Shown: positions 18,035-59,507, counted from the whole stretch's first letter. The stretch: 63,553 bases of DNA, filler included, from Collodictyon triciliatum (GCA_043381765.1; 15 parts of 15 records of this genome joined end to end with filler, not necessarily neighbours in it), one strand, 5' to 3'. Made by a program: numbers and translations. The notes: generated from the sequence alone by a model not told the origin.

Positions 18035-19346
18035 AAGAATGTTTATTTTGAGTCTAAGCATATTTGACAGGTGAATATGAGTAGAAAAACTGTCCAAACT
18101 GGTTGTTTGTTTGTTTGTTTGTTTGTTTGTTTGTTTGTTTGTTTGTTTGTTTGTTTGTTTGTTTGTTTGTTTGTTTGTTTGTTTGTTTGTTTGTTTGTTT
18201 GTTTGTTTGTTTTTGTAAAGAAACAGGGTGTAAATATGGTATTCGAGTGTGAGAAACTAACCACATTTGTTCCTTAGAAGAAAAACAGTGACAGGGGGCT
18301 CTCCATCTTGTCTCTTTGGGTCATAATTATGTGTGGAATAGACGCAATCAACCACCTCTAGAGCCTACAATTGTTTGCAAGTAAAAAAATAAAATAATCG
18401 TTTTTGGTTAAGTTGGAGGTAGAGTTTGACAGTTAGCAATTCATGAAGGGTGAACCGAGGTTCGAGATCAATTAAATAGAAAGTTACAAACATGCTCTGT
18501 AAATCCGAATAAGTGTGATGATAAAAAAAAATACTAATTGTATATAGGGGACAAGGAATGGTGGGGATTTATCTGACTATCCATTATTATTTTTTCTACT
18601 ACGACATTCTATCTCGATGAAGCATACATGTGCGAGTGTCTTTGGATTGGTCGCATCGTAGCACACTATAAATCCCGTCTTTGTTGGGTCTCTTGGCTGT
18701 AAAAGCGGGGTATTCTCTGTACGAAAAGTTGTCTTTCAACTCTAAAACCTTATGACTTCGAAATGAAAGAATTTCACAGGCGCCATAGTTTTCAAAACTA
18801 CTATTTTTTTATTTAACTTAACTCTTCCTTCTGTATTTATTTTTATTTCTTTTTTAACTATTCTTTTCATTTGTTTTTTTTCTTCATTGATATATTATTT
18901 ATCTATTTGTTTATCTATTTATATTTATATTTCCTTTATTTCTTTTCAACTCTCACAAAAAAAAAAAAACATAAAAACATAAAAACAAAAGAACATAAAA
19001 AGGAAGAAAATCCCTATGTATCACGCTCTGTGAAACCTTGGATCTTGCTCTTTGTGACCTCGAGAGAGAGGCGATGATGGTGATGGACGATCTCCGCATA
19101 AGACGTGGTGTTTGAGCCTTGGGAATCCTCCACAACAACCTTGTGCGAGCGACCAAGGTGAAAGAAGCGGGTGATATACTCCTGAGAGCCGATGGTGGGA
19201 ACATGGTTGGCTTCGATCTGGTGGGACACGTACTGCTGACAAAGCGAGGTTTTGCCGACTCCGCTGTGGCCAAGAAGCACGACCCGGGGAAGACTTTCGG
19301 TTGACATAGCGCCTGAAGATAGTGCTTTGCCTTTGAAGAGATTCAT
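17739..19346 (-). CDS. Atypical Ras-superfamily small GTPase with CaaX (4 exons)
   Basis: G1 GHSGVGKT, G2 PTI, G3 DSQG, GFIVCYD, G4 NKCD, G5 ETSAK, C-terminal CAIL-stop. Exons about 19346-19037, 18716-18628, 18364-18262, 17972-17739. Confidence 0.9.
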
Positions 19347-19812
19347 GCATTGTTCATATTTAAGTGATTTTGGGCCCTTCTCTGACTCCCTTTGCGTTGT
19401 TTATGTCTTTGTTGCTGTTGTCTTCGTCTCCTGCTGGATTCTTCTGTTTGCGAGACTCATACGACAACAAGGAAATGTCATGATCGGCTGATGGATAACA
19501 TCTCTCGTAAATGAATGACCAAATAAATAAGACGGAGTGCTTTTGGGTTGGGATTCTCGCCTGTCAATGGGAATGTCAAGCTCTGATATCGTTTTCATCG
19601 CCCACGGCCTCTGAAAGGCCGAATACCTTTGTCATGATATGCATCTTTGCTTCTAATACCGCATATGCTGTGAGACAACCGAGAAGAAGGGGATGGCAGG
19701 AGACCCACGCTGTGAAAAAGCCCAAAGAGAAAGGCCCACAAAACAATCATTATATTTTTGAAAAAGGGAAGATGAGATGACAAGAGAAGAGAAGTAGGGT
19801 CTGCATGATTAA

Positions 19813-20937
19813 TCATTTTGCCTTTTTATCAGAGGGATTGACGGCGGATGGCCAGCCAAAAGTCCAGTTGACACTGACACGGGCAACAGGCTGTGCATCG
19901 GGAGTCTTTCGGGCTGCAGCATAGACTTCGCATTCCACAACGGCGTCTGAGATGGGCAGACGCATTTCGGGTTGTGCAGCAACATCGCGCAGGTGTTCCA
20001 TCCACTCCGGAGGGCACGATGCGACTACAACGAGAGTCCCGCGGGCCTTTTGGGTATAGTTTGCCTTGAGCGATGTGACGATGGCACGAGGGCGCAGCGC
20101 GTTTGCTACACGATTGATATCATTCAATGACTCAATCACATATATCTTGAATGAAGTAATAGAACAACAATCATCTCTCAACACCATACCATCAGTTGGG
20201 AAGAGATCCTGAACTGCTGTAAGAACAGCAAGTCCCGAACACATTTCAGCAGCGTTTGCTTGGGCAAGAGCGTGAACGGAGCTGAAAGGATTTTGCAAGG
20301 CCCAAAGCCCGCCGGGGACTTCAGCAGCTGCAAACCCAGGCTGCAGATGCCGGACCACAGAGCACACAGAACCCGAGTACGGCGCAGCAAAGTCGACGAG
20401 GCGAGAGAACAAATGTCCGCCGTCTGTGACTGGCGCAAGACTTTGCAGTGATGGGCGCAGCATCAGCCGAGTCACCTCAGGTTTTGCCCCACGCACAGAT
20501 AATTTGAGCGGTGATGATGGCAACGACAATAAGGATGACGATAGTGGAGCAGGTGACAATAAGGATGAGGATGCAGATGAAGGCGTCTGGGCGGCTGCCG
20601 ATAAGGATGCCGATGCCATCGGCGGCAGGGAGATAGATGAGGACGAAGACAGCGGAACAGAGGAGGACGAGGATGAAGATGCAGATGAAGACGTCTGGGC
20701 GGTTGCATCCAAGGCCTTGGGAAGTCCGTGGCAGGCCAACCAAAGCTCATGCAACCCGTCTGCAGAATTGAGGGCCCGCGATATCGGCGAAACCACCGGC
20801 CATACGCCCACACGGACAAGTCCGCGCATGCTCCGTGCAAGGCTCAGGGCCCGTGTCACTTGCAGTCCGATCGTGGGGCCGAGCACAACACCGCACAGCC
20901 CGAGACACACTGCAGTCACTTCCAGGGCTCCGATCAT
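19813..20937 (-). CDS. Hotdog-fold thioesterase (DUF4442/PaaI-like) with N-terminal hydrophobic segment and Ser-rich linker
   Basis: FSRLVDFAAPYSGSV...LQPGFA...NPFSSVHALAQANAAEMCSGLAVL...RAIVTSLKANYTQKARGTL resembles DUF4442-type hotdog domains. There is a probable 84-nt intron at 20189-20106. Confidence 0.8.
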   Translation of the reverse strand: MIGALEVTAVCLGLCGVVLGPTIGLQVTRALSLARSMRGLVRVGVWPVVSPISRALNSADGLHELWLACHGLPKALDATAQTSSSASSSSSSSVPLSSSSSISLPPMASASLSAAAQTPSSASSSLLSPAPLSSSLLSLPSSPLKLSVRGAKPEVTRLMLRPSLQSLAPVTDGGHLFSRLVDFAAPYSGSVCSVVRHLQPGFAAAEVPGGLWALQNPFSSVHALAQANAAEMCSGLAVLTAVQDLFPTDGMVLRDDCCSITSFKIYVIESLNDINRVANALRPRAIVTSLKANYTQKARGTLVVVASCPPEWMEHLRDVAAQPEMRLPISDAVVECEVYAAARKTPDAQPVARVSVNWTFGWPSAVNPSDKKAK

Positions 20938-21599
20938 GGCGGCTGGTCGAGATCTGGATATAAGTATGTTTTTTTGTTTTTTGTTTTTTTGCTTTGTTCT
21001 TTTTTGTTCTTTTTTGTTTTTGTTTGTTTTTTGTTTGTTTTTTGTTTGTTTTTTGTTGTTTTTTGTTGTTTTTTGTTGTTTTTTGTTGTTTTTTGTTGTT
21101 TTTTGTTTGTTTTTTGTTTGTTTTTTGTTTGTTTTTTGTTTGTTTTTTGTTTGTTTTTTGTTTGTTTTTTTGTTTTTTGTTTTTTTTTTTTTTTTTNNNN
21201 NNNNNNNNNNNNNNNNNNNNNNNNNNNNNNNNNNNNNNNNTTAATTAATTAANNNNNNNNNNNNNNNNNNNNNNNNNNNNNNNNNNNNNNNNNNNNAACA
21301 AACAAAAAACAAACAAAAAACAAACAAAAAACAAACAAAAAACAAACAAAAAACAAACAAAAAACAAACAAAAAACAAACAAAAAACAAACAAAACACAA
21401 ACAAAACACAAACAAAACACAAACAAAACACAAACAAAACACAAACAAAACACAAACAAAACACAAACAAAAAACAAAAAACAAAAAACAAAAAACAAAA
21501 AACAAAAAACAAAAACAAAAAACAAAAAACAAAAAACAAAAAACAAAAAACAAAAAAAATACAAAAACAAAAAACAAACACAAATATTCAGTCATGAAA

Positions 21600-24500
21600 C
21601 ACAATTGTTGAAGCCGTATCTCGAATGGAATTTATAATTCAAATCCATCTTGGCCAGCATCTCCACCATCCTGCACAAAATTGAAGGGAAGAATAAAAAA
21701 AATAATTCAAATCCATCTCAAAACTAGGCTGAACGAAGCGACACTGAAATTAGAGGACACAACAGAGGAGATCAAAGTATAACTCATAGACTATAACTAA
21801 TAACAATTAGCTCTGTATTCAAATGCACAGACAAGGGCAGTTAATTCGGCAACTCATAATTTTCATTTTACCACAGGAGAGAAACGAATTCGCCTCTTTA
21901 CTGCTTCGACAACTTTCTACGTATTCACACAAATCTGAACAACCTTATCAATCAAAGTATATATTATCTCCGCACGACCTTACCTGAACTTTTGCTACTT
22001 TAGTGTAGTTTACAAAATCAATGACCTTCCGTTTTGTGTGCTATATCATGAAACGCCCTAATTGACATACATACATATCACGTTCAATACGTGTCATAGT
22101 GTATCAGAAGCTAACAGCTGGCCTGTTTTGCAAGTTCTCATTAAAGAAAATGTCAGCCAATTAATATCACAAGTGGAGAAACTTTCATCACAGGTTCAAT
22201 CCCACTCCCATATCTATATCTCAACACACACAGCCAGGCCAGCTATGGTGCACATCATGTATTTTATTTCCTATTATTACTTTATATCAATATCAAACGC
22301 ACGTTATTTTTCGGGATTATTTATCACATAAACTCAAAATCAGTTGGTTGAGCACAAAAGTGAAATTCAGCGAAGGGACGAAATATACCGCGAAGTTACA
22401 AAGCAACTCGAAAGAACTCACGAGCAGGTCTGCTTGTATCGATTTGAAAGCAACACAATAGTTCATATTACTCCCTTCAATTGTGGTATCCACGTTTTAT
22501 CACACATGTATCTTTTTCTATATTCTCTTCATTTTGTAAATAAAATGTCATACTCGGCTTATAAAATTTGGGCAATATCTTTATTATCTCACCGATTAAC
22601 CTATCGCTCAGATATACTGACTCCTTCACTTATAGACTAGAGAAATGCAAGAGAATTTACACCAAAAGCACGCCGAGCAAATAGCGGAGATATCACAAGA
22701 ATCTGATACTGTCGCAGAAGTATATGGCACCATTATGAAAGGATAAATAAATCAAAGAGAATAATTGCCCTGATCACTTATTAACTTCTTTCCTTTCCTT
22801 TTCTTCTTTCATTCTTTTATTTGTTCTTGTCGCTGCAAATAATCAACAATGCATGAATGTTTTCAGAACCTTCGACGACAAATTCGCGAGTCCGATGAGC
22901 AAATATCAGTCCTGCAGCAGCAGTTAGAAGAAATTACTTTGCAAGTGAACCAGCAACACGAATATATGACCTCAACCGACGAAGACTTCAAACTTTTTCA
23001 GAGGGTTTTTTTTTATTGTCTATTTACATAAATCAAACTACACATCATATTACAGTTTTTTTTTATGGCAGCCCATAATCCCTCATGCTAGTATGTATTT
23101 CCACCCTTTCATCTATTCCATTGTTTTTCATCTTTTAGGCATTGTTTCTAGCCCTTCGTGGATTGAAGTCGAATGACATTAGAATCAAGGAATTAGTCCT
23201 TCAGAAAAAATTTGTTGCGAGTCGCCTCACCTTATTAGAAAAGATGCGCAAGGATTTGGCGGACTTAAGTCACGCTATGATTGGGGAATTTCGAAATGAA
23301 CCTGCAAATATTCGAAACCGAGAGTCGAGAAAATCATTACGGGGTGAATTTCCATCATCTGTTTATGTCATAGTTAACCGCCCCTATATCTTGAGTTTTC
23401 ATAGTGAAAATTTTATTGGTTTGAATTAGTTTTGCATTTAATTGATATTTTTTTTGGATATAATGTGGCTAATGGTAGCCGATGGTTATTTTGGTTAACT
23501 TTAAGTTCATTAATAATTTTATAATATAGTTATTGCAATCACCGTATTGGCGGCGTTGCGTATGAGCCGTTTCACCAAAGTACCACAATGCGGACCATCA
23601 TCAACTTTTGGATCTGAACGAGTTCATGTCTGTTCTCTGGATGATATATATGTCCCAAACAGTATGGCCATGCGATTACGTTACAATTACATGATTGATT
23701 TAAATTCTTTGGATCGAATAAAAGAAAAAATGAAAAGTTTCAAATCTTCAACACCATCCAAGAAAAGATTAAGCGAAAAAACTGTGTCATATACTTATTA
23801 TTCTACTTAAAAAAAGGAGAAGAAAAATAATAACCAAAAATAACCATGTTGATTGCATGCAGCCATCAACGAGACAATTGAAACTCTTCAGATTGGCTTG
23901 CAAACACATAATTCGGATGCAAAATGCCTGTCCATACTTCGTAGCAAATTCGAACCATCATTTGGACAAAGCGAAAAATACCTGTCCAGGTCGTTGCTAT
24001 TTTGGATTCACCGACAGGTATCTCATTTTCTCGCATGTTTGGCCAATGAATCCTTTTTTTTTCTTCAAAATTTACTATTCAACATGTACTCTTCTGTGCG
24101 ATGCGATTCGATTCATATATTTCTATCCTCCATCGTGTTTTCTATACACAGCAACCGCGGGGTATGAAGGCTTCGAGGCACATCTCCGTCGATAAATCGA
24201 TTGCTTTGATAAGAAAAACAACGCTTCAAATCTCAAAAAATTGCAGAGACTTGGAAAATGACAGGAACGTTCTTTTGGTGCAGCTAGAAACTATTGATAA
24301 GCAGAACAGTGGGTAAGAATCTCTATTTTCTTCCCTTCCTGAATTTGTAATCCCTTACCATAATAATGATTCGATGAAACGTCTAAAGTGTGAATATCGG
24401 AGCATTTTGCAGAGGATTGTTCACTGCAATATTTTCTCCAAATAAATTACTTATGTGAATTCATTATCGCGCAGCCTGGTTAGTAAGTTGCAAGAGTATG

Positions 24501-25246
24501 AAAAGAAATTTATAGAGCAATCTGAACTTGTAAATTACATGGAGTCCCAAATTCAAGACCTTCAGGTTTTCTCATGTTCATTCTCAAATCTTGCGCCCCT
24601 TTTTTCTATTTCTCTCTATTAAAATAATTCCTAGCCTCGCGGTATTTTAAACGAAACGAACTTGGCTCGTCCGCAACAGAGCGAAATTACAGGATATATT
24701 CCCCCGGAAAAATATCAAGAATTATTGCAAGCACACGAGGATATTATTCACAGTTTCAAGCGTGTGTCGTCAGAAAAGGTTTCTATGCGAATTTCAATAA
24801 AATAGAGCGCGTCAAGGTTACAAAACAACCGTTCTTGACAAATATTGTTTATGTGCTCATCATCCCATATTTGCAAAAGCATTTAAAGACTAGTCTTCAA
24901 CTATGATTCATTTTCCCTGTCTTCAGGAAAAGCTCCAGACTGATTTTGATGCACTGACCATGACGATGTCGAACATACGCCAAACACTCCAGAAATGCGA
25001 ACTCGAGTCCCGTGATAGAGCAGATGAATTAGAAAAGTACAAAAGGTTCGTGAGCGTATCAACCGGCTGGAATAAGAAAATTTCTTTGATATGTTGTGTC
25101 ATAAAAATATTATCATCTTGAATTGACGGATATTGATTAAACGGCACCGCACTTTTTCTGTATATATTTGACATCATAGAGTCCTTTCTGAAAAAGAGCG
25201 TGAAATCTCTAGCATTCAAGAGCTATTACACCAAAAATCAACCCAG
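21600..25246 (+). CDS. Long coiled-coil protein with internal PACT-like motif (CCDC171/pericentrin-like), internal fragment
   Basis: Many E/Q/K/L-rich exons. The spliced segment ELVLQKKFVASRL...RKSLR|VIAITVLAALRMSRF fits the PACT/CCDC171 QKK..L and V.AV.A..RM pattern. Confidence 0.6.
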
Positions 25247-25340
25247 GTACACCATAATTGATTTAAAGCTTCCTTTCTTTCATTTTCTCTTTTATTTGAG
25301 CCTCATATACTAAGCCTCAAAGTCGTCTTTTTAAATCCTT

Positions 25341-25436
<96 letters not shown>

Positions 25437-25942
25437 NNNNNNNNNNNNNNNNNNNNNNNNNNNNNNNNNNNNNNNNNNNNTTAATTAATTAANNNNNNNN
25501 NNNNNNNNNNNNNNNNNNNNNNNNNNNNNNNNNNNNTTTTCTTTCTTCTTTTTCTTTGTTCTCTTTTCTCTTTTTTTTTTTCTTTTTTTTTTTTCTCTTT
25601 TCTCTTTTCTCTTTTCTCTTTTCTCTTTTCTCTTTTTTCCTTTCCTTTTCTTTTCTTAATTTTTAATTAAAAAGTTAACGGCTTCGATTTTACATTCTTC
25701 TGATATCTATACAATGACAGCTTTCACATACTCAATTCTCTGGTCCATAGTCTTTTGTTTGTTTGTTTGCGCCAACTGCCTATTTCCTTTATTACGTTTT
25801 ATTATCAGTTGATGATCTTTCCCTTTCGTTTCTTATACCCTGGCGTTGAATTCCAACCCGGTAATTCGATCAATAAGAGGTTATGATGGCCAAAGTATGA
25901 GATTATTCATCCATGATATATTCTTTCTTTACAAACACCTAG

Positions 25943-27803
25943 GCTGCCCGCCTTATTACAACCTCTGCTTCCCATCTTCCTACCCCTTCGCTCAACTATC
26001 TTCACACCGGACAAGGTAATGAGAAATATGCATGCACACAACAATAATGAATATCAGAAATCGTCTGTGCTCTTTTCTCGTTCTTGAATATATCTTTCAA
26101 ATTATCCGTCATATGCATATGATACCCTACATCAGATATATCTTTGCACAATCTTGGTATTGCTTCGAATTCATTTTTTTTAAGGTGATAGCCACCTGTC
26201 TCGGTCAATATTTATGTTATTTATTTTAATTAGGGTCTATATTATCCGTGCTGCTACCTGCATGGTCCAATATTCTTGTGTCACGTACTAAGTGTTGCGT
26301 TTTGGCCAAGTCCGAAACTGTGGCAGCGAAGGCTACATTGCATACTGGAATAATGGATGCGCTCAATCGGAAGGTCAACGGTGGACCCCTCTTCTTTTAC
26401 AAGGTCAGCAATAGTCTGTTTTTCTAATGACTTTAGGATTATAACACATAAAGAAGCTTTTGGAGTAGGAATAAGCCCGGCCATGTACCTCCATATACCT
26501 CATTTATGAATCTTCTCACTGCAGTATAGTTCTAATCATAACGCGGGTGATTTGGTGATATCGTCGCGTGATGACCACGATGTCGCCTTCACAGACATCG
26601 CACCGGACGCACACTTTTGCTTGGCAGATCTGTCTGCCCTTTTTTGCCTGGGCGGGGACATTCGCATGATACCTGGTAATTCTGTCTCTTCATTGAAGCC
26701 ATCATTAAGTCTTGCTGGCAGTGGTGTCTTGGCATTTAGCTCCAAAGGCCGCATCGTCAAGATTGAGTTGAACCCAGGAGAGTCTTTCGTGGTGAACAGA
26801 AGGCAAGGCATACTCTGGAAAGATTGTCATATCTTTATCAGAATTCAAAAATATGTCATTCCTGATGACTGCTTCATTAGGTTTCTGTTGGCTTTTGATT
26901 CTAGTATCCAATTTGGAGGTGAAGATAGCGATTTAATTAGTAGGGTCAACAAGACCACTGTTGGGATAAATGTACGAAGTATTATATTTTAGAGATACTG
27001 AAACTAGAAAATTTAAACAACGATCTTCCGATCACACTCTCGTCTCATAGAACCCTTCATTTTAAATGCGAGCGAAGTGCATATTGAATGCTGTCTGAGC
27101 CGCTTGCGTTTTTTTCCACTTATGTCCTTGAATTTCTTTTACCGTAGTATCGCCCAGCCATTTTTTTTTTTGAAAAGATTATCGATGTAGGTTGTTAATA
27201 ATACCACGGAAATTGAGATAAGAAGAAACGTCAATTTTGATGGGACAAACCCAGAGTATTTTTTGCACTGTAATTCATGCATATTAAGTGGAAGGAAAAG
27301 ACGGAAATTCTATATTCTATGCTTTAGATGAAACATTCATCGCATTCTATGCGTAGAATAGCAGCAATCCGCTTTTAAAAGAACATACTCTATCTATCCA
27401 TGAATTAATTCCTGTCTTTATCTTCTATTTATTTGCATATTCTCATCACTGCTATCAGAGCCACTCTCGTGAATTTCAACGACGACCCTCAATTTCGCTC
27501 AAGTGACCTCGTGAAAGTAACATTTGTTTTCAAAATAAAAAGAGCCTATATTTCAATAAAAAAATTTTTTTTTGTTTTAATTCTGAATATGTATTGTCAT
27601 GTGTAAGTGATTCACACCTCAAATAATGAGACGAATAAATTTGTAAATATACATATATTCAAAACCTTATTATTCATGCATTTTATTCAAATACCCTCTC
27701 ATAATCACGTATACAGGTATTCGTCTCCGGTCAGTCGCCAGCGCCAGGAATTCTCTACCTCCAGAGTAATGTGGCTTCAAGAATGCAGAATCTGATAAAA
27801 TAA
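25943..27803 (+). CDS. AIM24: AIM24 (DUF124)-family protein; start not resolved
   Basis: GGPLFFYK, LAGSGVLAFSSKGRIVKIELNPGESFVVNRR|FLLAFDSSIQF and terminal PGILYLQS match AIM24 motifs. Confidence 0.75.
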
Positions 27804-28381
27804 GAACCGGCTAATTTGGCTCTCATGCATGGCAAAACATTTGGGCTGTGAGCAGGGATCCAAATGCCCTTCTTTGGGTTAATAAGATGTGGGTATCATG
27901 GGAATGCGGGTGGGATGCCATGACCTGGCGCGTTTTTCGGCGATCCTTTTCCTTTTGGCCAGGCGCGGAGTACGCGGAACCTAAATCTGGTGAAGATACT
28001 GCGCCCTCGGTTAACGAGCACCTGCTGGCATTCTATTTTGGAAAATATTTTCTGTTGTGGTTCCAATCCCAACACCAATCTGCCTCTGCGATTCAGGCCA
28101 CACACCGATATAACTTGTTTGCGGCAGAGCGATGCGCACAGGCTTACTGTTTCCAGACAACACAAACATATTTTTTTTTTCTCTTGCTCGCAATTCTTGT
28201 GAATTCTTCTCATACAAATCATAACCAATCGGCGTGCTTCTCAAAAACTTAACGACCTACAAGATACATCAAAAAAAAGTTTACTCTTGATTTTCATATC
28301 TGTATGGTTGCCAACAAACATTCTTTCGTGTAAATATTTATATATATGCAGAGCCTTAATTTGCGAGCAGAAGTCAAACCC

Positions 28382-29491
<1,110 letters not shown>

Positions 29492-30040
29492 GTTTGATAT
29501 CGTCTTGCAAGAGTCATGCATTTTTTTTAATTCTGAAGAAAATTATGCTTCTAATGGTATTATGTGTATGTATGTATGTATGTATGTATGTATGTATGTA
29601 TGTATGTATGTATGTATGTATGTATGTATGTATGTATGTATGTATGTATGTATGTATGTATGTATGTATGTATGTNNNNNNNNNNNNNNNNNNNNNNNNN
29701 NNNNNNNNNNNNNNNNNNNTTAATTAATTAANNNNNNNNNNNNNNNNNNNNNNNNNNNNNNNNNNNNNNNNNNNNCCCAGAGAAAGAGAGAAGGTAAAAT
29801 ATACTCAAGAGTGAGATAAAAAAGAGAGGATGTATGTATGTATGTATGTATGTATGTATGTATGTATGTATGTATGTATGTATGTATGTATGTATGTATG
29901 TATGTATGTATGTATGTATGTATGTATGTACAAATATATTAGATAGCTATACAAAAAGAAAAATGAAATCAACAAGACCAGAGCAGGAGGTATGATGCGA
30001 TTGGACGAAAGTGATTATGAAAAAAATCGAAAAGACATAC

Positions 30041-33000
30041 TTGATCAGCAGTTCCAACTTGAAAGCTGATGATGATTCCACTGCCTTTCGACTGTTTCTT
30101 ATTGATTTTGCCAAATTTGTTGTCTCGCAGAGCTGGATAATGCACAGCCAATATGGCAGTGTGGAAAGAAAGATATTCGGCTACGCGCTCTGCCGTGGAG
30201 TGTTGTGTTTGAAGCCGGGATGATAGGGTTTTCAATCCGCTTCGGAAAATGTTTGCATCGAAAGGAGATAGCCATGCACCCTCAGTGCTTTGAAAGAGCG
30301 ATACTAGTATATAAGACAACGTTCTTTGCATGATAATCCATCATTTTAAAAGTGTTATGGGTGTTGAATAAAGATTTTGTTCAAGTATGATGTCTATTTA
30401 GTAAAATAAATTTACTTGCTTCCGAATAGGCTTTGTCTTTGCAAAATATCAGCCCACACATCAAGTCAGACCTCCCAGAAAGCAGGGCAGTCTCTGTATA
30501 AATGACAAAGTCTGCACCTTGGCCCACTAGAAGAATATATATTGTGAAAATCATGGATTATCAAGACAACTGAATATACACTGCTCATCAGTGCGGATGG
30601 TCAAATAATACATATTGTTCTGAAGTCCTAGTTATTCGTTGAAGGGTTCATTTCTATAGAAATATTCTTGGGACCATGGATGGGTATATTACTTGGTTTT
30701 TGATACTGACAGGTCATCATGGAATTATCAACCACAAGGAGAACATTACGAGGCCTTAGTATCTCAGAATAGTTCTTTATGTCACCTGCCCTTAACATAG
30801 GTCTGCTTGGAGTCTCTATGTAAACCATGCGGGTGCTTTGGAAAACGAGATTAAGAAGCAATTTTATAATTTGATTTGACGTATAACTGCAAAGTGAAGA
30901 AATAATTCTGGCAGTAGTTAAAAATCAGCATAATTCGAAAAGTAAAATAAGATATACCAATTGTAATAGAACATAAGAAGGAAAACCTGGACGTCACCAA
31001 GTCGACGATACTGCACGTAACGTCAAATATGCGAACAAGACATCCAACACGGTTAGCTGCCTGGCACAATTGGCGGTATGTTGCCTCGTGAATATCATCA
31101 CAGACAAGGACCTCTTCTCCCGGTTTCAGCTTTTTGAAAATGATCGTGTATATGGTTTCTATGAGGTTAATTCGAACTATAATATTGGGTCAAATTGTAG
31201 ATGTTATTTATAGATATAAACCAACAAGTTTTAGCAACGCCACGATTGTAGTCGAACTGCTGTTGAATGAATGCGCATACGGAGAATCTGAATTGATTTC
31301 CTTAAATTACAAACTCAAATGAAAAAAAGGGAGATATTTGGAAACGAAAGATACAGTAAAGACAAGTATCGATGGCTAGCCAACCAAAGCCAAAACCTCC
31401 GCTATCTTGCGCAAATTGAGAGGAAGAACAAACAAATAAATGAAGACAGGTATATTTTTCATGTCTATTATGAGTATCCTTTTGCTCATTATTATTTTTT
31501 AGATGATGACATGCTTTAGGGTTATCATTACTGATAATTGGTCTTTAGATGTGTTAAAAAAGAAAAGATACACCATTATCTATGAATAAAATATGATATA
31601 GAAACAAACTCTCTAGTTTTGCAAGCTCTTTATCAAGGGCAGCGCAGTTTGAATCCATAGATATAGGCTTTGCCGAAGACTGCAATTGTTAAAAAAAAAA
31701 TTAATAATTAATAATTAATAATTAAAAAGTAAAAACTAAATAAATAAATAAATAAATTAAAAAGTAAAAACTAACTAACTAAACAAATAAATAAAAAGAT
31801 GAAGCAATAACATAAGTTGAAATATATAATAAAACATAAAAATAGGAAAACACTCTTAATCTACTATATAAAGATACACGAATAAAAATCAAGATTGAAA
31901 TGCGATCTATGGTATATGTTGCTTAAATAAACGGTAAAGAGTGTGTATATTTACTGGTCCACGAGAGTTACGGCGCAAATAGTTCCTCAGAAAACCACCA
32001 CTTTGTTTGGAATCCCTATTAAAATGCAAAAATATTGCAACTAAATCTTTCTATAAAGCAAGTAATACATATATTATAGAACTAAATTAATATCAGACCC
32101 AGGGGATGTAAAACTCGAGCCCATATTTGTCAAGGACAATGGAGTGCTTTGTCCCTAAATTGGGGGCAATCAATATGAAAGGTGTACATCAACACAGCTA
32201 CATCGAAAGAAAATACAAGAGACTCACGGAAGTTCTCGGGGGTGGCTCTGCAATATCATCACTTTCTCGAGTAGAAGACGAAATAGGTTTCAGATCAGTC
32301 AAAGCACAAAATGAGACAAAAGTGTCTTGCATAAAGCCTGTGCATTTTTTAAATATTCTTTTATAAACAATATAGCAAATAACTTAACACATATCTGTGT
32401 GTCAAAATATAATGGAATGAATAATGAATAATGAATATAGAATTTATGTGATGTGTGACACTGTCTAATCGAATAAGAGCTTGTCTCCAAACGATTTTAA
32501 GACAAAATAAGGGAGCGGGGTGAGAAAAAGGAACCTTGTATGACTGGTGACTCTAATTGGTCACTGATTTGTCTAGCTTGTTTGAAATGATCCTCTTATT
32601 TGATATGAAGGGCATAAATTAAGGATTACGATATTCGTTCTTTTAAAAAATTAAATGATTATGTACTGTCTGATAGATGGAGTAGTATTCATGAAAAAAT
32701 GAAAATCATTATACTAATAGTAAATATCATTGGATTATTTTACTAATCACGATTTGAAGGATACGGACTCTGTTTAATAACTCCACTTCATGTTGCGCTA
32801 CTTGCCTGTAATTTATTATATGTAATATAATAATATGAGTCGAATAAAGGAAAAAATATATGATAGAATAAGAAGGTATATTCTTTTGAAAAAAAGTTTA
32901 TATTGAATTGTGCAAGATACTGGTTTTTTTTCATAAATAAAAAACACACAGGTGCTAAATGCTAACTCAGTGGCAGGTAAATAACTGAGTTAATAAATAT

Positions 33001-33316
33001 TGTACCAACCTTGTGTAGATAATGTAGTTCATCGCTTGATGCAATGACGAAATATAACTTGAGAATTGCTTAACTTCCTGAATCGCTGAATCTTAACAAA
33101 CAAGCGACACACATCGAATATTATGATTCAAGAGTAAGTATGGCAAGTCGGACGTACACATGGAGCAAAGAAAGCCATATATATATGCAAAAAGAAGACA
33201 ATAGATATATATATATATATATGAAGAGGGAGTGAAGATATACCACATTGCTGTATCTTGGAAGGGTCGTAGTTTTGAAGACTCTTTTGCACGAGATCTA
33301 GCTCCACCTCGTTCAT
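30041..33316 (-). CDS. Cystathionine beta-lyase-like (Cys/Met PLP family) protein with N-terminal extension; catalytic Lys absent; 3' end truncated
   Basis: About 14 in-phase exons: ...ALDKELAKLE, LKPGEEVLVCDDIH, TRMVYIETPSRP, LVVDNSMM, GADFVIYTETALLSGRSD, EGAWLSPFD...GLKTLSSR, VAEYLSFH...VHYP, QSKGSGIIISF. Confidence 0.85.
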
Positions 33317-42590: not shown

Positions 42591-45500
42591 CACTGACAAC
42601 AATATCACGAACTCCTGTGGACGACCACTTCGAAGGTTCATTATGAGTCGAAATAAGGATACAAATTCTATTTAACTATCAAACAAAACAGCTTATATTC
42701 AGTGGTTCTTCCATACTTCTGTAATAGACCAATATGAGTCGAAGTTTTTGCGGATTGGACACCAAGGAGATTCGTTGATGAAGACCAAGAAAACTCTTGA
42801 ACTCCAGCGATTCCAGGTTAGTCTTCACACTAATATTTTGGTACTATTTTAAAAATTATGGTCATCTGATATGATTTTCCCATGTAGTTTTTGAGCGACG
42901 ACTACATTCTTGCCATTTATGACAAAGATTCTATCAGTATTTACACTACTCCATCAATTATCAGAGAAGATGACTCAAAGTCACGGAAGTCCAAAGTAGA
43001 ATACCAGTGAATAATATTGAATATACTTTAGATTTCCTTCTTTTTTATTCGGGTCTGTGGCTGATTGTGTGCTGATTTTTGTAGGTACAAGCACCCATCA
43101 TTCTTGCAAAGAAACATGTGTGGTTTGNNNNNNNNNNNNNNNNNNNNNNNNNNNNNNNNNNNNNNNNNNNNNNNNNNNNNNNNNNNNNNNNNNNNNNNNN
43201 NNNNNNNNNNNNNNNNNNNNNNNNNNNNNNNNNNNNNNNNNNNNNNNNNNNNNNNNNNNNNNNNNNNNNNNNNNNNNNNNNNNNNNNNNNNNNNNNNNNN
43301 NNNNNNNNNNNNNNNNNNNNNNNNNNNNNNNNNNNNNNNNNNNNNNNNNNNNNNNNNNNNNNNNNNNNNNNNNNNNNNNNNNNNNNNNNNNNNNNNNNNN
43401 NNNNNNNNNNNNNNNNNNNNNNNNNNNNNNNNNNNNNNNNNNNNNNNNNNNNNNNNNNNNNNNNNNNNNNNNNNNNNNNNNNNNNNNNNNNNNNNNNNNN
43501 NNNNNNNNNNNNNNNNNNNNNNNNNNNNNNNNNNNNNNNNNNNNNNNNNNNNNNNNNNNNNNNNNNNNNTTACGCCGCCCAAAAGTCACCCACATCCGGT
43601 TGTTTTTCTTCAGTCGTCCCACTCACCATTACTGTGGATGAATGGTAGAGCATCAACCGCGCCCATGATGTCTGTCGTTGAAATGCCAAACGTAATAATT
43701 TACTCCACAAGTATATGAATATACCATACATATTTGAACTCTTATGTACGTTTTTTAGAATGCTTTGTGCTTGTGTCGTCAAGAGCATTTGGATGCGACT
43801 CCTGTTAGACCTAATATGTTCAAGGTAGATACATATTAGTGAAAATAACACAGGCAAAAAGTAACGCACTCTGGGAGATTTAAGAGAGAGGACGATGCTC
43901 TTCATGTAAAGTTGGACTGACTCTTAATTCATAATCTCTTCTTTTTCTTCTTATGTATGGAACGCAGATCATTATATATCTCCTTCACAAACGATCTACT
44001 ATCGCTATGACAATCCCTGTATTCCGGTGCGAATCATCAACTTTCAAGTAGGTCATTTGTGGTATTTCATTTCTTCATAGAAATATCCTATATTAACTGA
44101 ATTTTCTTATCCATCGTAGAAGGACGTTTGTTCTATTCTCAACTCTACACGATTTGCTTGTATGTTTGATTAACGTGCATTTAAACCCCTCCCCCCTTTA
44201 TTTGATTCAAAGTCGTGCATTCAATGCTTAATATGAAATCATGGTTTTATTTTTACTTTATTTATTCAAAGTATTAACACTTTACACTATTGCTCACTTA
44301 AAATCGCCAAAGATTATATATATCCCGAGGCAACACTTACAATTTGTTGATTGTGGTAATGAACACACATGTGAAGGACCATTTCATTTTAATGGTGAGC
44401 TACTTATATTTTCTTTTTTTTTTTTTTTCAGTAAGATGTTATCTATCGATATAACAGGTTCATCTTTAACTTCATCCGATTGGCACACTGATGACATGGA
44501 GGTTTGTTCGCCTTAAACTTACGCGTCTTTCTTTTTTTTGGAAAAAATATTCCCGATTTGTTTCGAGTATGCTCGATTCTGTTGACGATGTTTTATTTTG
44601 TGTCTATGTCTGATGTTCAGGCATATATGCTGGTGCCTTGCTCGTCTCCTGAATCCAGGTCGTACATAACTGCATCGGACGAGCAAGATTTGTGTACGAG
44701 TTTTGACTCCTTTCTAGTGCATTTTTTTATTTTTGTCTTTTAGAAATCCGTTGCAAATACCGTAATTATATTATCTCAAACGGGAAAAAAAACAGCCGCG
44801 GAGCACTTATTAAGTGTATTCGGGTCGAGCTTATATACAGTGAGAATTGATAAAAGTGTTTTTTTGAAAACAACACTAGACGAGGTAATTAAATATTTAT
44901 ACGAATTTTGTGCGCATAGTTGTTTCTCATGGCATACGGCATTCTTTCTAGAACGATACCACTGATAAATGTGTTGCTTATTTATTTAATTAGAATATTC
45001 ACCACGATGCCGAAGCAATGCATTTTGCTATCGCTCATCTTCAGGATGATATTCTTGTGGACCAAGTTGGCTTTTTTTCTAAAAAAAAAAAAAAAGAAGA
45101 AGAAGAAGCTTGTATAAAGTGTATTGATATTACAATAACCTCTGTCGGTCTTCTTTCGTCTCTTTTTTTTTCTCAACTCTGATAAATACACCGGAAATTT
45201 AGTTGAGCTCACCAATCACATCTAATGTGTGTGTTATAAAATCACAGATAATCATGGAAATCAACCAGTTTTGTCCCCATCGATTGACTTTTGAGCTACT
45301 GCGCGAGTATCTCATTGGGAAGCCATATCAGAATTTGAAGTCACAAGGAATTCCCTCTCATCTACTTCGCTTAATTCCGATATCGTCGTGTTCTCCATTC
45401 GGGAACTCGGAGGCTCGTGATGTATAATAAAATCACCTCTTAATTAATCTATATTCACACTTTAATATTCTTAGGTAGAATAATTCAAGATATACCACAT

Positions 45501-47309: not shown

Positions 47310-50222
47310 ATGGACCTGGAAGAACTAGGACTGGGAAGCAATCGCACCGTCATTGTGATGCGTGTCGGAGAAAATTCAAAAGGAAAAGAATTTGTGATAC
47401 CATCAAACTGGTCATTCCAGCAACTCATCGAAGCAATATCCCACAAACTGAGCGTTACTTTACCAGTTAAATTATTTTCCCGTGATGGTTCCGAAGTTAG
47501 AGATATAGACTTAATCCAAGATAATGACACTCTATATGTTGGAGCCAAAGAAGTGAAGAGAAATTCTATCATGTTAGGACATGCAAAAGGTGACAATAAT
47601 ACTATTTAATTTTAATTTTTTTTCTAGCACTATCAATATCAGAGCAGATGGCTTCTTTATACTTAATTATTACTTGTAAAGCTTGTTCAAATTTCTTTAA
47701 CACCTCATCAACTTTTTTTTTGAAAAAACATTTTCTGAAGGGTTCACTGTGTCCTCAGTTGGCTCACCTCATGTACATAAACATAATGGAGGCACAAAAG
47801 AAGGAGCAGATAATGAAGTACCAACAGATGAAATCAGCAAATCGTTTGTGGAAAACGAATCGTTAAATGTGAATGGCCCTATAAATGGAGTAGCTCAAGC
47901 AGTAGGAAATAAAATGGAGTCTGCAAATCCTGATTGTAGTAAAGAAATAGATGGAGTACATCCCAGCATTAATACTAGCAACAGTTTGAATATCGGGGAT
48001 AGAATTGGGAACTATATACTAGGAAGATTTCTTGGGCGAGGTGGGTTTGGAGAAGTTAGACTCGCAACTCATTTCATTAGCCATGAGGAATATGCTCTCA
48101 AATTTATTCGTAAACAAGGAATCAAAGATTTTCAAAACGCTGAACGCATGTCCGCAGAAATCATGGCCCTTACAGTTTTGAGACATCCCAACCTTCTTCA
48201 CATGTTTGAGGTCATCGATACACAAAATGCTGCTTGTTATGTCATGGAATATCTACCTGGGGGCGATCTCCTGCATTATATTCTAGAACACGGTGAGCTC
48301 AAGGAGTTTGATGCGTACCGATTCTTCCAACAGTTATATTCCGGAGTTGAATACTGCCACAGCCAAAACATTATCCACAGAGATTTGAAACTAGAAAACT
48401 TGCTGCTCACTCGGGACCAAAAGACTTTGAAGATAGCTGACTTTGGGCTGTGCGGGGTGATCGTGCCTGATGTCACTGACCAGCACGGAGGAACTCGGTC
48501 CTATGCAGCACCAGAGTTATTTCGTGGGAAAACAGCCATCTCGCCCGCGCTTGACATCTGGTCTATGGGGGTCATTTTGTATGCAATGGTATTTGGTCGC
48601 TTGCCGTTCAATGTAGTCGATGCTTCAGGGGCAAAAATAGTCTCTGTGGAGAATATACAGAACGGTCGGTACTCTTTCCCGCCAGGAAAGGTATCAAGTC
48701 CTTGCCAAGACTTCATTTCAAGGATGTTGACAGTTTCGATAAAAAAGCGGGCATCCTTAGTAGATTTGTATTGCCACCCTTGGACAAATATTATGCGCCG
48801 AAAGAATACGTGGATGAATACAGAATCTGGTCGAAATGATATGGACCCAGATTCAGTCCTTCTAGACGACCTCGATGACTTGTTTGTCAAAAAGTCGGAT
48901 TCGCATACAAGTCTATCCAATGACCTTACATCTCCAGGAAACGTTAAATCTGTAAAGACAATCCAATCATTCAACCAATCATATGGTCATGATATATTTA
49001 CATCATGGTCCCCAAAAGTGACAAACCCAACAGGGAATGGGTCCTTCGTATCCCCACCACAGACTCCAAATACTTGGGATGATGAAGTCCCAATTTTTAG
49101 TCAGAAACTCACACCCGTTATCACAAAGCACGAAGCAAAGCAACTACCAAATATTCCTGGCCCAATACCAAAGAAAGTAACAGGAAAACCGGGAGCACAA
49201 GCTCAACTCACATCTCATTTACTTAATATGCAGACTTATGACCATGGAAATCAACCAGGGACACCGACATATAACTCTTCCAATCATAGAAGAAAAAGTG
49301 GTATAGATTTTCACTTGGATTCAAAAAGAAAAAAAAGGAAAAAAAGGAAAAAAAGGAAAAAAGAAAAAAAGGAAAAAAGAAAAAAAGGAAAAAAGAAAAA
49401 GAAAAAGAAAAAGAAAAAGAAAAAGAAAAAGAAAAAGAAAAAGAAAAAGAAAAAGAAAAAATGAAAGAGAATCCCCTTCCTATGATGTAGATTTTCTTTT
49501 CAATTTTGTGAGTCTTTCTTCCTTTTAACATCAAAACGAACGGGGTCAATTATAATCATTATCATTTTATTGTCCTACATGTACCAACCATTTATCTCTG
49601 GTTGATTTATAAGACATCCACCCACCCACATCCCACTTAAATGGCGCATATACACGCAGGAGACTACAATGTCGTATCGACAACCATCGAGCCCTTGGGT
49701 GATTTCAAAGCGAAAGAGCGAGGCCTTCAAACAAAGCCTCGCCCTAAGCTGGGAATCGACACAACCGGACAATACGAGGCTGCTGCAGAATCCCAAGCGC
49801 ATCTCAGCGGGCCGAAAGGATTGACAGGCGCGAAGCAGACACCCAAACGGCCCGGAGCCAAAGAGCCTTTCGCGCTGACGCAGCACTTCCCTGGGCTCAG
49901 TGGGCAAGCGAACCCAGGGCAAAGCCTTGCAGCGCGACGAGCAAAATCAGCTTCTCATGCCTACATTCAAAGCCCCAAGGAGGAGCGAGCGCAGCAGAGT
50001 TTGGAAAGTAGCGTCGAGGCTGCGGCTGTGAGCGGGCGAGGTTCATCGCCAAACGCAGTGCCAAATACTCCGACTTCGGCGAATGCAGGCCGAGTCTCGG
50101 ACTCTGGGCGGTACAAACACCTGACCGAGTTCAGGTCTGGATTTAAGAGCTACAACCAAGCGTATCGCAGAATGGCACAGAGTACACACTCGGGCGCTGT
50201 GTCAGGCAGCAATGGCTCGTGA
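47310..50222 (+). CDS. AMPK/MARK-related Ser/Thr kinase with N-terminal DCX/KHA-like domain (exons 47310-47589, 47741-49300, 49660-50222)
   Basis: GRGGFGEV, YALK, HRDLKLEN, DFG, YAAPE, DIWSMGVILY. Two phase-1 GT-AG introns join three ORF-track ORFs in frame. Exon 1 ends ...KLFSRDGSEVRDIDLIQDNDTLYV (DCX/KHA pattern). Confidence 0.9.
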
Positions 50223-51242: not shown

Positions 51243-54913
<3,671 letters not shown>

Positions 54914-59321: not shown

Positions 59322-59507
59322 NNNNNNNNNNNNNNNNNNNNNNNNNNNNNNNNNNNNNNNNNNNNTTAATTAATTAANNNNNNNNNNNNNNNNNNNNNNN
59401 NNNNNNNNNNNNNNNNNNNNNTTTTTTTTTTTTTTCTTTTTTTCTTTTTTTCTTTTTTTCTTTTTTTCTTTTTTTCTTTTTTTCTTTTTTTCTTTTTTCA
59501 CTTGCAG

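Follow-up and report, generated by a model that had tools for sequence, protein, structure and literature searches.

A lysine-less relative of cystathionine beta-lyase in Collodictyon triciliatum, probably a pseudoenzyme kept by purifying selection

The window analysed here is a 63,553-nt stretch of DNA from Collodictyon triciliatum (GCA_043381765.1). Its minus strand carries a gene of the Cys/Met-metabolism family of pyridoxal 5′-phosphate (PLP) enzymes in which the Schiff-base lysine is replaced by alanine. We put at roughly three in four the probability that this locus is a real spliced gene for a pseudoenzyme that derives from eukaryote-type cystathionine beta-lyase (CBL), is kept by purifying selection and probably acts by binding. 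As far as sequence evidence reaches, the pseudoenzyme is real and lineage-restricted, and any partner or sensor role is hypothetical. The loss of PLP binding and of lyase chemistry would follow from the residues replaced at the former active site, which are also replaced in a second, full-length protein from Diphylleia rotans (P0002).

At the lysine motif, exon 11 (30416–30526, minus strand, as are all exons below) reads GQGADFVIYTETALLSGRSDLMCGLIFC, with YTETALLSGRSD standing at the HSATKYLxGHSD site. The codon of the Schiff-base lysine column (30488–30486) is GCC, encoding alanine. Neither lysine codon shares a base with GCC at any position, so that the replacement goes beyond a single-base change, as a preliminary description of this DNA had claimed. 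The replaced YGG and SGM contacts named in that description were recovered as well. Exon 9 (30987–31129) reads DDIHEAT for DxYGGT, so that HEA stands for YGG, and exon 8 (31226–31287) reads FNSSSTT at the phosphate-binding FxSGMAA site, so that SSS stands for SGM. Exon 10 (30693–30835) has ETPSRP for ETPSNP, with Asn replaced by Arg, and VDNSMM with its Asp kept. These two motifs, together with LSPFD, GLKTL and HYP, were all found in the translated exons. In CBL and CGL, the tyrosine of YGG stacks on the PLP ring, SGM binds the phosphate, and a C-terminal arginine binds the substrate carboxylate.

The alternative exon with an intact lysine motif that the preliminary description had raised was absent from the window, both by a six-frame motif scan and by tblastn. 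The latter search, with nine active homologues as queries, gave 178 high-scoring segment pairs, 41 of them on exons of the model and 137 elsewhere; the best 12 of these 137 all lay on other contigs (best E 0.019). No further PF01053 gene was found on the 15 contigs of the window.

The gene model was obtained by laying P0002 on the minus strand. It consists of 12 exons running from 33316 to 30041 (1254 nt, 418 codons) with zero stops. All 11 introns are GT-AG and 22 of 22 splice sites are canonical, in agreement with the earlier statement on splicing and stops. Exon 1 (33244–33316) begins with an ATG at 33316–33314 and reads MNEVELDLVQ..., the start of P0002. Exons 2 (33010–33091), 3 (32765–32805) and 4 (32535–32594) encode an N-terminal helical extension, which ends in exon 5 (32228–32337), where a poorly conserved linker begins. 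Exon 6 (31955–32050) carries a conserved box; of all junctions in the model, its 5′ boundary at 32050 is the most doubtful. Exon 7 (31610–31679) reads SSAKPISMDSNCAALDKELAKLE and is the first exon with detectable homology to the PLP fold. Exon 12 (30041–30303), in which the C-terminal domain begins, ends in phase 0 and is followed by a GTATGT donor. The range first given for the gene, 30041–31680, holds exons 7–12 and leaves out the six further exons at 31955–33316. PF01053 matched four of the six exon open reading frames (ORFs) submitted to Pfam, with E-values from 1e-19 to 0.019.

The gene had also been called intact, which is not confirmed for the window copy. Its last visible exon ends at 30041 at the GT donor, and the contig ends 265 bp further on. 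The segment in between (29776–30040, minus strand) is the start of intron 12 and includes a (CATA)n microsatellite; the contig end falls within this intron, so that the later exons are not covered. P0002 has about 83 further C-terminal residues that are not represented in the window, and a Smith-Waterman comparison of the C-terminal 90 residues of P0002 with the minus strand of 20000–30060 gave only chance scores (≤33). The break of the contig in a microsatellite-bearing intron explains the missing 3′ end.

When exon 12 was used as a query, only P0001 and P0002 were retrieved among 95 candidates. Both are isoforms of a single Trinity transcript with the source label EukProt Diphylleia rotans, and P0002 is a complete transcript ORF of 510 aa. 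The window copy aligns with P0002 colinearly from end to end, with 277 of 418 residues identical (66%). Identity is 59% in the helical N-terminus (57/96), 53% in the linker (34/64) and 72% in the PLP fold (186/257). At the lysine motif P0002 reads YTETALLSGRSDLMCGL, and all 17 of 17 residues are the same as in the window copy, the Lys to Ala replacement included. The other motifs of P0002 read DDIFEPT, FSSCSTS and ETPSRP; hence the YGG site is HEA in the window copy and FEP in P0002, and the SGM site is SSS and SCS, respectively. The C-terminal part is seen in P0002 only, where RFGSEAS stands for SxGGxxS and LVCISVGSE for xRxSVGIE. The C-terminal arginine of xRxSxGxE is thus a cysteine in P0002, and the matching exon of the window copy lies outside the contig. 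Judged by their sequences, the two copies may be either orthologues or old paralogues. P0002 may also derive from prey contamination of the D. rotans transcriptome.

The lysine is almost never lost in this family. We aligned every PF01053 domain in 270 collected proteins, of which 268 domains were complete at both motifs. The lysine column holds Lys in 265 of the 268, the exceptions being P0002 (Ala), P0204 (Arg) and P0172 (Thr). In the tree, P0204 (392 aa) and P0172 (359 aa) each have a long branch of their own, close to P0012 and P0197 and in a different part from the C. triciliatum and D. rotans pair, which indicates that their lysine losses are independent of that in the pair. Five further proteins, P0122, P0123, P0124, P0127 and P0139 (762–935 aa), contain two PF01053 domains in tandem; in the second domains of P0122, P0127 and P0139 the YGG and GHSD motifs are degenerate and the lysine is kept. 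Such a degenerate second domain may serve as a partly dead partner within the same chain. No second cluster of the dead type was present among the best 150 of 10,508 matches in a phmmer search of 1.84 billion representatives.

The replacements extend well beyond the lysine. Taking as invariant every column with at least 90% conservation across 77 active homologues gives 62 columns, of which P0002 retains 43 and replaces 19. The replaced columns include N168K, G198C, Y222F, G223E, G224P, N267R, S314T, K317A, H322R, H459W and R477C. The window copy keeps 32 of the 33 columns that it covers and that P0002 keeps, and seven of 15 comparable replaced columns hold the same residue in both copies (N to K, G to E, N to R, S to T, K to A, H to R and G to A). 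Both copies lack the Schiff-base Lys, YGG, SGM, the ETPSNP asparagine and the GHSD histidine; P0002 further lacks the C-terminal Arg, the MSH histidine (H459W) and the SxGG loop. Because the cofactor and substrate contacts are replaced, the protein would most likely be without PLP chemistry and work by binding.

Nevertheless, P0002 is recognisably a member of the family. It matches PF01053 with an E-value of 8e-79 (265 bits, cut-off 27), and the best NCBIfam model is TIGR01329, for eukaryote-type CBL, at 238.7 bits, under half of the equivalog cut-off of 487.5. The best sequence match in the Protein Data Bank (PDB) is Arabidopsis CBL (1IBJ, E 9e-56), and the closest active proteins share only 30–40% identity. 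In the AlphaFold2 (AF2) model of P0002 the mean predicted local distance difference test score (pLDDT) is 83; blocks within residues 175–505 mostly score 91–98, with 74–80 at residues 451–470. A Foldseek comparison with structures of CBL, CGL, CGS and MGL gave E-values of about 1e-34 and target-normalised template modelling scores of 0.77–0.88. The fold-type I PLP fold is thus intact in the predicted structure of P0002.

Phylogenetically, the pair forms a clade with 100% support in a tree of 41 rows. The stem of this clade, at 1.74 changes per site, exceeds both the median tip (0.46) and the crown (0.39). The long stem and short crown mark a burst of change followed by constraint. The pair falls in a CBL-type group of 24 rows with an SFGS motif, to which plant, haptophyte and fungal CBLs belong; this group and its clusters include the lichen-fungus protein P0036, a banana chloroplast CBL and a protein of Diacronema.

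Selection was judged by two substitutes for the ratio of nonsynonymous to synonymous substitution rates (dN/dS). First, random substitution of the window coding sequence down to 66% identity introduced a mean of 7.9 stops, and none of 500 runs was free of stops; the simulation ignores indels and is hence conservative. Second, the 141 replacements between the two copies have a mean BLOSUM62 score of +0.57 (+0.81 in the PLP fold) versus −0.57 ± 0.14 in simulation, and the observed value was reached in none of 300 runs, with the caveat that global alignment tilts slightly toward high scores. ORF retention and the conservative nature of the replacements together reject neutral decay. The preliminary description had proposed a selected, catalytically dead paralogue. 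An expressed ORF in a second species, the rejected neutral simulations and the preserved fold uphold its selected part, while catalytic death is read from the residues.

Several points weigh against the reading of a pseudoenzyme kept by purifying selection. The relative is available as a protein only, which is why substitutes for dN/dS were used, and the clade consists of just two sequences. The window copy is known from DNA alone; its 3′ end lies beyond the assembly, and its intactness is unproven. Its tip branch (0.30) is 3.4 times longer than that of P0002 (0.089), which may reflect the rate of the lineage, a relaxation of constraint or minor flaws in the gene model. These features of the window copy would fit a recently inactivated pseudogene, with the D. 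rotans copy alone functional. We consider this quite improbable, since 418 codons are free of stops, every splice site is canonical, nearly all comparable family-invariant structural columns are intact, and the missing end coincides with the contig break in intron 12.

A further point against concerns the cofactor. The Asp of VDNSM, which contacts the pyridine nitrogen, and the Thr preceding the lysine column are kept in both copies, and the loss of PLP binding is read from residues with this Asp still in place. The protein could then be an enzyme or PLP binder after all, holding the cofactor non-covalently or carrying out other chemistry in a remodelled pocket; the perfect conservation of the remodelled loop between the copies indicates that the pocket region matters. 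However, the lysine, both Gly of YGG, the Gly of SGM, the Asn of the NP motif and the His of GHSD are all among the 19 replaced columns, the C-terminal Arg and the His of MSH are gone from P0002, and lysine is missing in just three of the 268 aligned domains. In addition, two acidic residues, E223 in the YGG loop and E315 beside the former lysine (P0002 numbering), occupy what we take to be the place of the PLP phosphate. Retained PLP binding or catalysis is thus very improbable.

The pair also differs from the family at its N-terminus. In active enzymes of the family, an N-terminal arm with Y-x-R and NPT motifs reaches into the neighbouring subunit and completes its active site. In the pair, a lineage-specific extension of about 165–175 residues stands where this arm would be. 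AF2 predicts helical residues 3–96 followed by a disordered, Ser-rich linker at 97–170; a single-sequence AF2 model of the extension consists mainly of one long helix (residues 18–78), with a predicted template modelling score (pTM) of 0.43. The extension had no relatives among proteins of 280–893 aa, no usable match in the Atlas and no significant Pfam family. The arm itself was not detected: alignments to our own profile and to Pfam both begin at profile position 54–55 of 382, and positions 1–53, which hold the Y-x-R and NPT arm, have no counterpart in the pair. The earlier proposal that the YxRxGNPT loop had become PISMDSNC is not borne out, as profile homology begins only past that loop, which appears lost or unalignable and not replaced residue by residue.

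One segment of the linker stands out. The box SGGFLRNYLRRN (31964–32014, minus strand, exon 6) is the same in both species within the otherwise poorly conserved Ser-rich linker, and its conserved basic stretch is GGFLRNYLRRN. The box could be what is left of the Y-x-R arm, or else a regulatory site of the basic RRxS type. MAFFT alone places the Y-x-R of GGFLRNYLRRN in the Y and R columns of the family, at the cost of an insertion of 7–8 residues in a region with pLDDT below 50. The profile alignment lends this match no support, and we treat it as a lead only.

The arm bears directly on how a dead subunit could act. As seen in solved CBL and CGL structures, active sites of the Cys/Met family lie at the dimer interface, so that an inactive subunit might be a supporting, non-catalytic member of an obligate heteromer with an active CBL-family subunit, supplying residues in trans to one shared site, in the way that LCB1 serves LCB2. 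The MAFFT placement of Y-x-R is compatible with such a role, and there is precedent in human LCB1, which lacks the PLP lysine and is still required in a one-site heterodimer (PMC3794620). However, the pair has no detectable counterpart of the arm that would reach the partner (the Pfam match also starts only at position 55), and the MAFFT match depends on the insertion in a low-confidence region. We therefore regard a supporting subunit of this type as unlikely. The idea of a hetero-tetramer put forward in the preliminary description is weakened for the same reason, namely that the N-terminal arm is not detectably retained. A predicted complex of two copies of P0002 residues 171–510 scored 0.00 and is evidence for neither side.

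We propose the following sequence of events for the maintained pseudoenzyme. The dead state would have arisen before the split from the D. rotans copy and would then have been held by purifying selection. The PLP fold would have been kept, while the protein's own cofactor and substrate contacts were replaced and the arm was exchanged for the lineage-specific extension. The protein might then enter mixed oligomers, in which it would modulate catalytic subunits that share its fold, probably in a negative sense and perhaps under the control of the linker. With the arm undetected, a partner's site would lack the residues supplied in trans, which makes a modulatory or negative subunit more natural than a supporting one. 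This is our leading guess, and a tentative one, since no arm able to complete the site of a partner can be detected and the partner itself is hypothetical.

About as likely as this guess is a role as a ligand sensor or as a scaffold unrelated to CBL, which would use the remodelled, charge-rich and perfectly conserved pocket. In a more specific form, the former pocket, with the shared charged residues K168, E223, R267, E315 and R322 (P0002 numbering), would be a site for a metabolite or protein, and the helical N-terminus and the RRNS linker would make the protein a regulator linking the status of sulfur amino acids to some other process in diphyllatean protists. We find this specific version rather unlikely. 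If true, it would be the first case in the Cys/Met PLP family of a stand-alone protein that has been neofunctionalised.

The surroundings of the gene in the window carry little information. In the window, separate short contigs follow one another, with runs of N every ~4.2–4.3 kb and pieces that shrink slowly from ~4.3 to 4.1 kb. Each of the 14 junctions (4146–4245, 8469–8568, ... 59322–59421) consists of 44 N, TTAATTAATTAA and 44 N, a linker with stops in all six frames. The N runs at 43128–43569 and 52261–52277 are ordinary gaps and not linkers. As contigs are joined by linkers, gene order across them has no meaning, and the other genes of the window are not physical neighbours. The gene's own contig spans 29776–33914 and is bounded on either side by such a linker. 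Simple repeats occur at contig ends: (CATA)n/(TGTA)n repeats flank the linker (29560–29675 and 29830–29930), and poly-T lies at the opposite end of the gene's contig (33850–33914). These repeat-bounded ends fit assembly breaks at simple repeats. Other contigs hold one open frame of 587 aa at 47701–49464 (plus strand) that encodes an entire protein kinase domain (PF00069, E 1.8e-63), and pieces of ordinary eukaryotic genes, namely a DUF4442 fragment at 19813–20880 (minus strand, E 4e-17), an exon of a Ras/Roc-type GTPase at 19014–19400 (minus strand, E 2e-8) and a PROPPIN exon at 2658–2996 (minus strand, E 1.5e-8); a TPR fragment is also present elsewhere in the window. Since they lie on other contigs, the kinase, GTPase, PROPPIN and TPR sequences are uninformative on the pseudoenzyme gene.

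Dead paralogues of PLP enzymes are already known in other families, in LCB1, in a plant TSB-like protein and in the N-terminal module of CBS-1. Within the Cys/Met-metabolism family, we found no described lysine-less member in the open-access full-text literature, in agreement with the statement of the preliminary description that it knew of none, and the Neurospora met-7 literature gave nothing on cofactor-site loss. What the pair adds is a dead version shared by two species of a deep-branching eukaryotic lineage that has been little studied, together with a novel N-terminal region, and it is a clean system in which to ask how a PLP fold is put to new use after cofactor loss. It is also a warning for annotation, since automatic pipelines would call this protein cystathionine beta-lyase and attribute to the organism, wrongly, the corresponding step in methionine synthesis.

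The closest known system is eukaryote-type CBL. It provides the top PDB sequence match (Arabidopsis CBL, 1IBJ) and the top NCBIfam model (TIGR01329) and has the same fold, and its plant, haptophyte and fungal representatives share a tree group with the pair. However, the pair lacks the Schiff-base lysine, YGG, SGM and a detectable arm, scores under half of the equivalog cut-off, and has an extra ~170 N-terminal residues for which no relatives were found. P0204 and P0172 resemble the pair in belonging to PF01053 and having the lysine column replaced, but they keep more of the other motifs, lack the N-terminal extension and represent independent events.

Outside the family, the likeness is one of principle. 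LCB1 (SPTLC1) of serine palmitoyltransferase is, like the pair, a retained paralogue of a PLP enzyme of fold-type I from which the PLP lysine and further catalytic residues are missing (PMC3794620). In contrast to the pair, which is known from sequence and has seemingly lost the trans arm, LCB1 belongs to the alpha-oxoamine synthase family and is a demonstrated heterodimer partner. The plant TSB-like pseudoenzyme, of PLP fold-type II, is described in PMC12727527 as a dead paralogue with an allosteric or binding role; it differs in fold and pathway, and has two key residues changed, versus 19 invariant columns in P0002. The N-terminal module of C. elegans CBS-1 is a PLP-less inactive copy of a transsulfuration-enzyme module beside an active one (PMC3316156). 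These last two cases show that PLP folds are reused after catalytic loss. The CBS-1 module, however, is of fold-type II and joined in cis to the active copy, unlike the stand-alone proteins of the pair described here.

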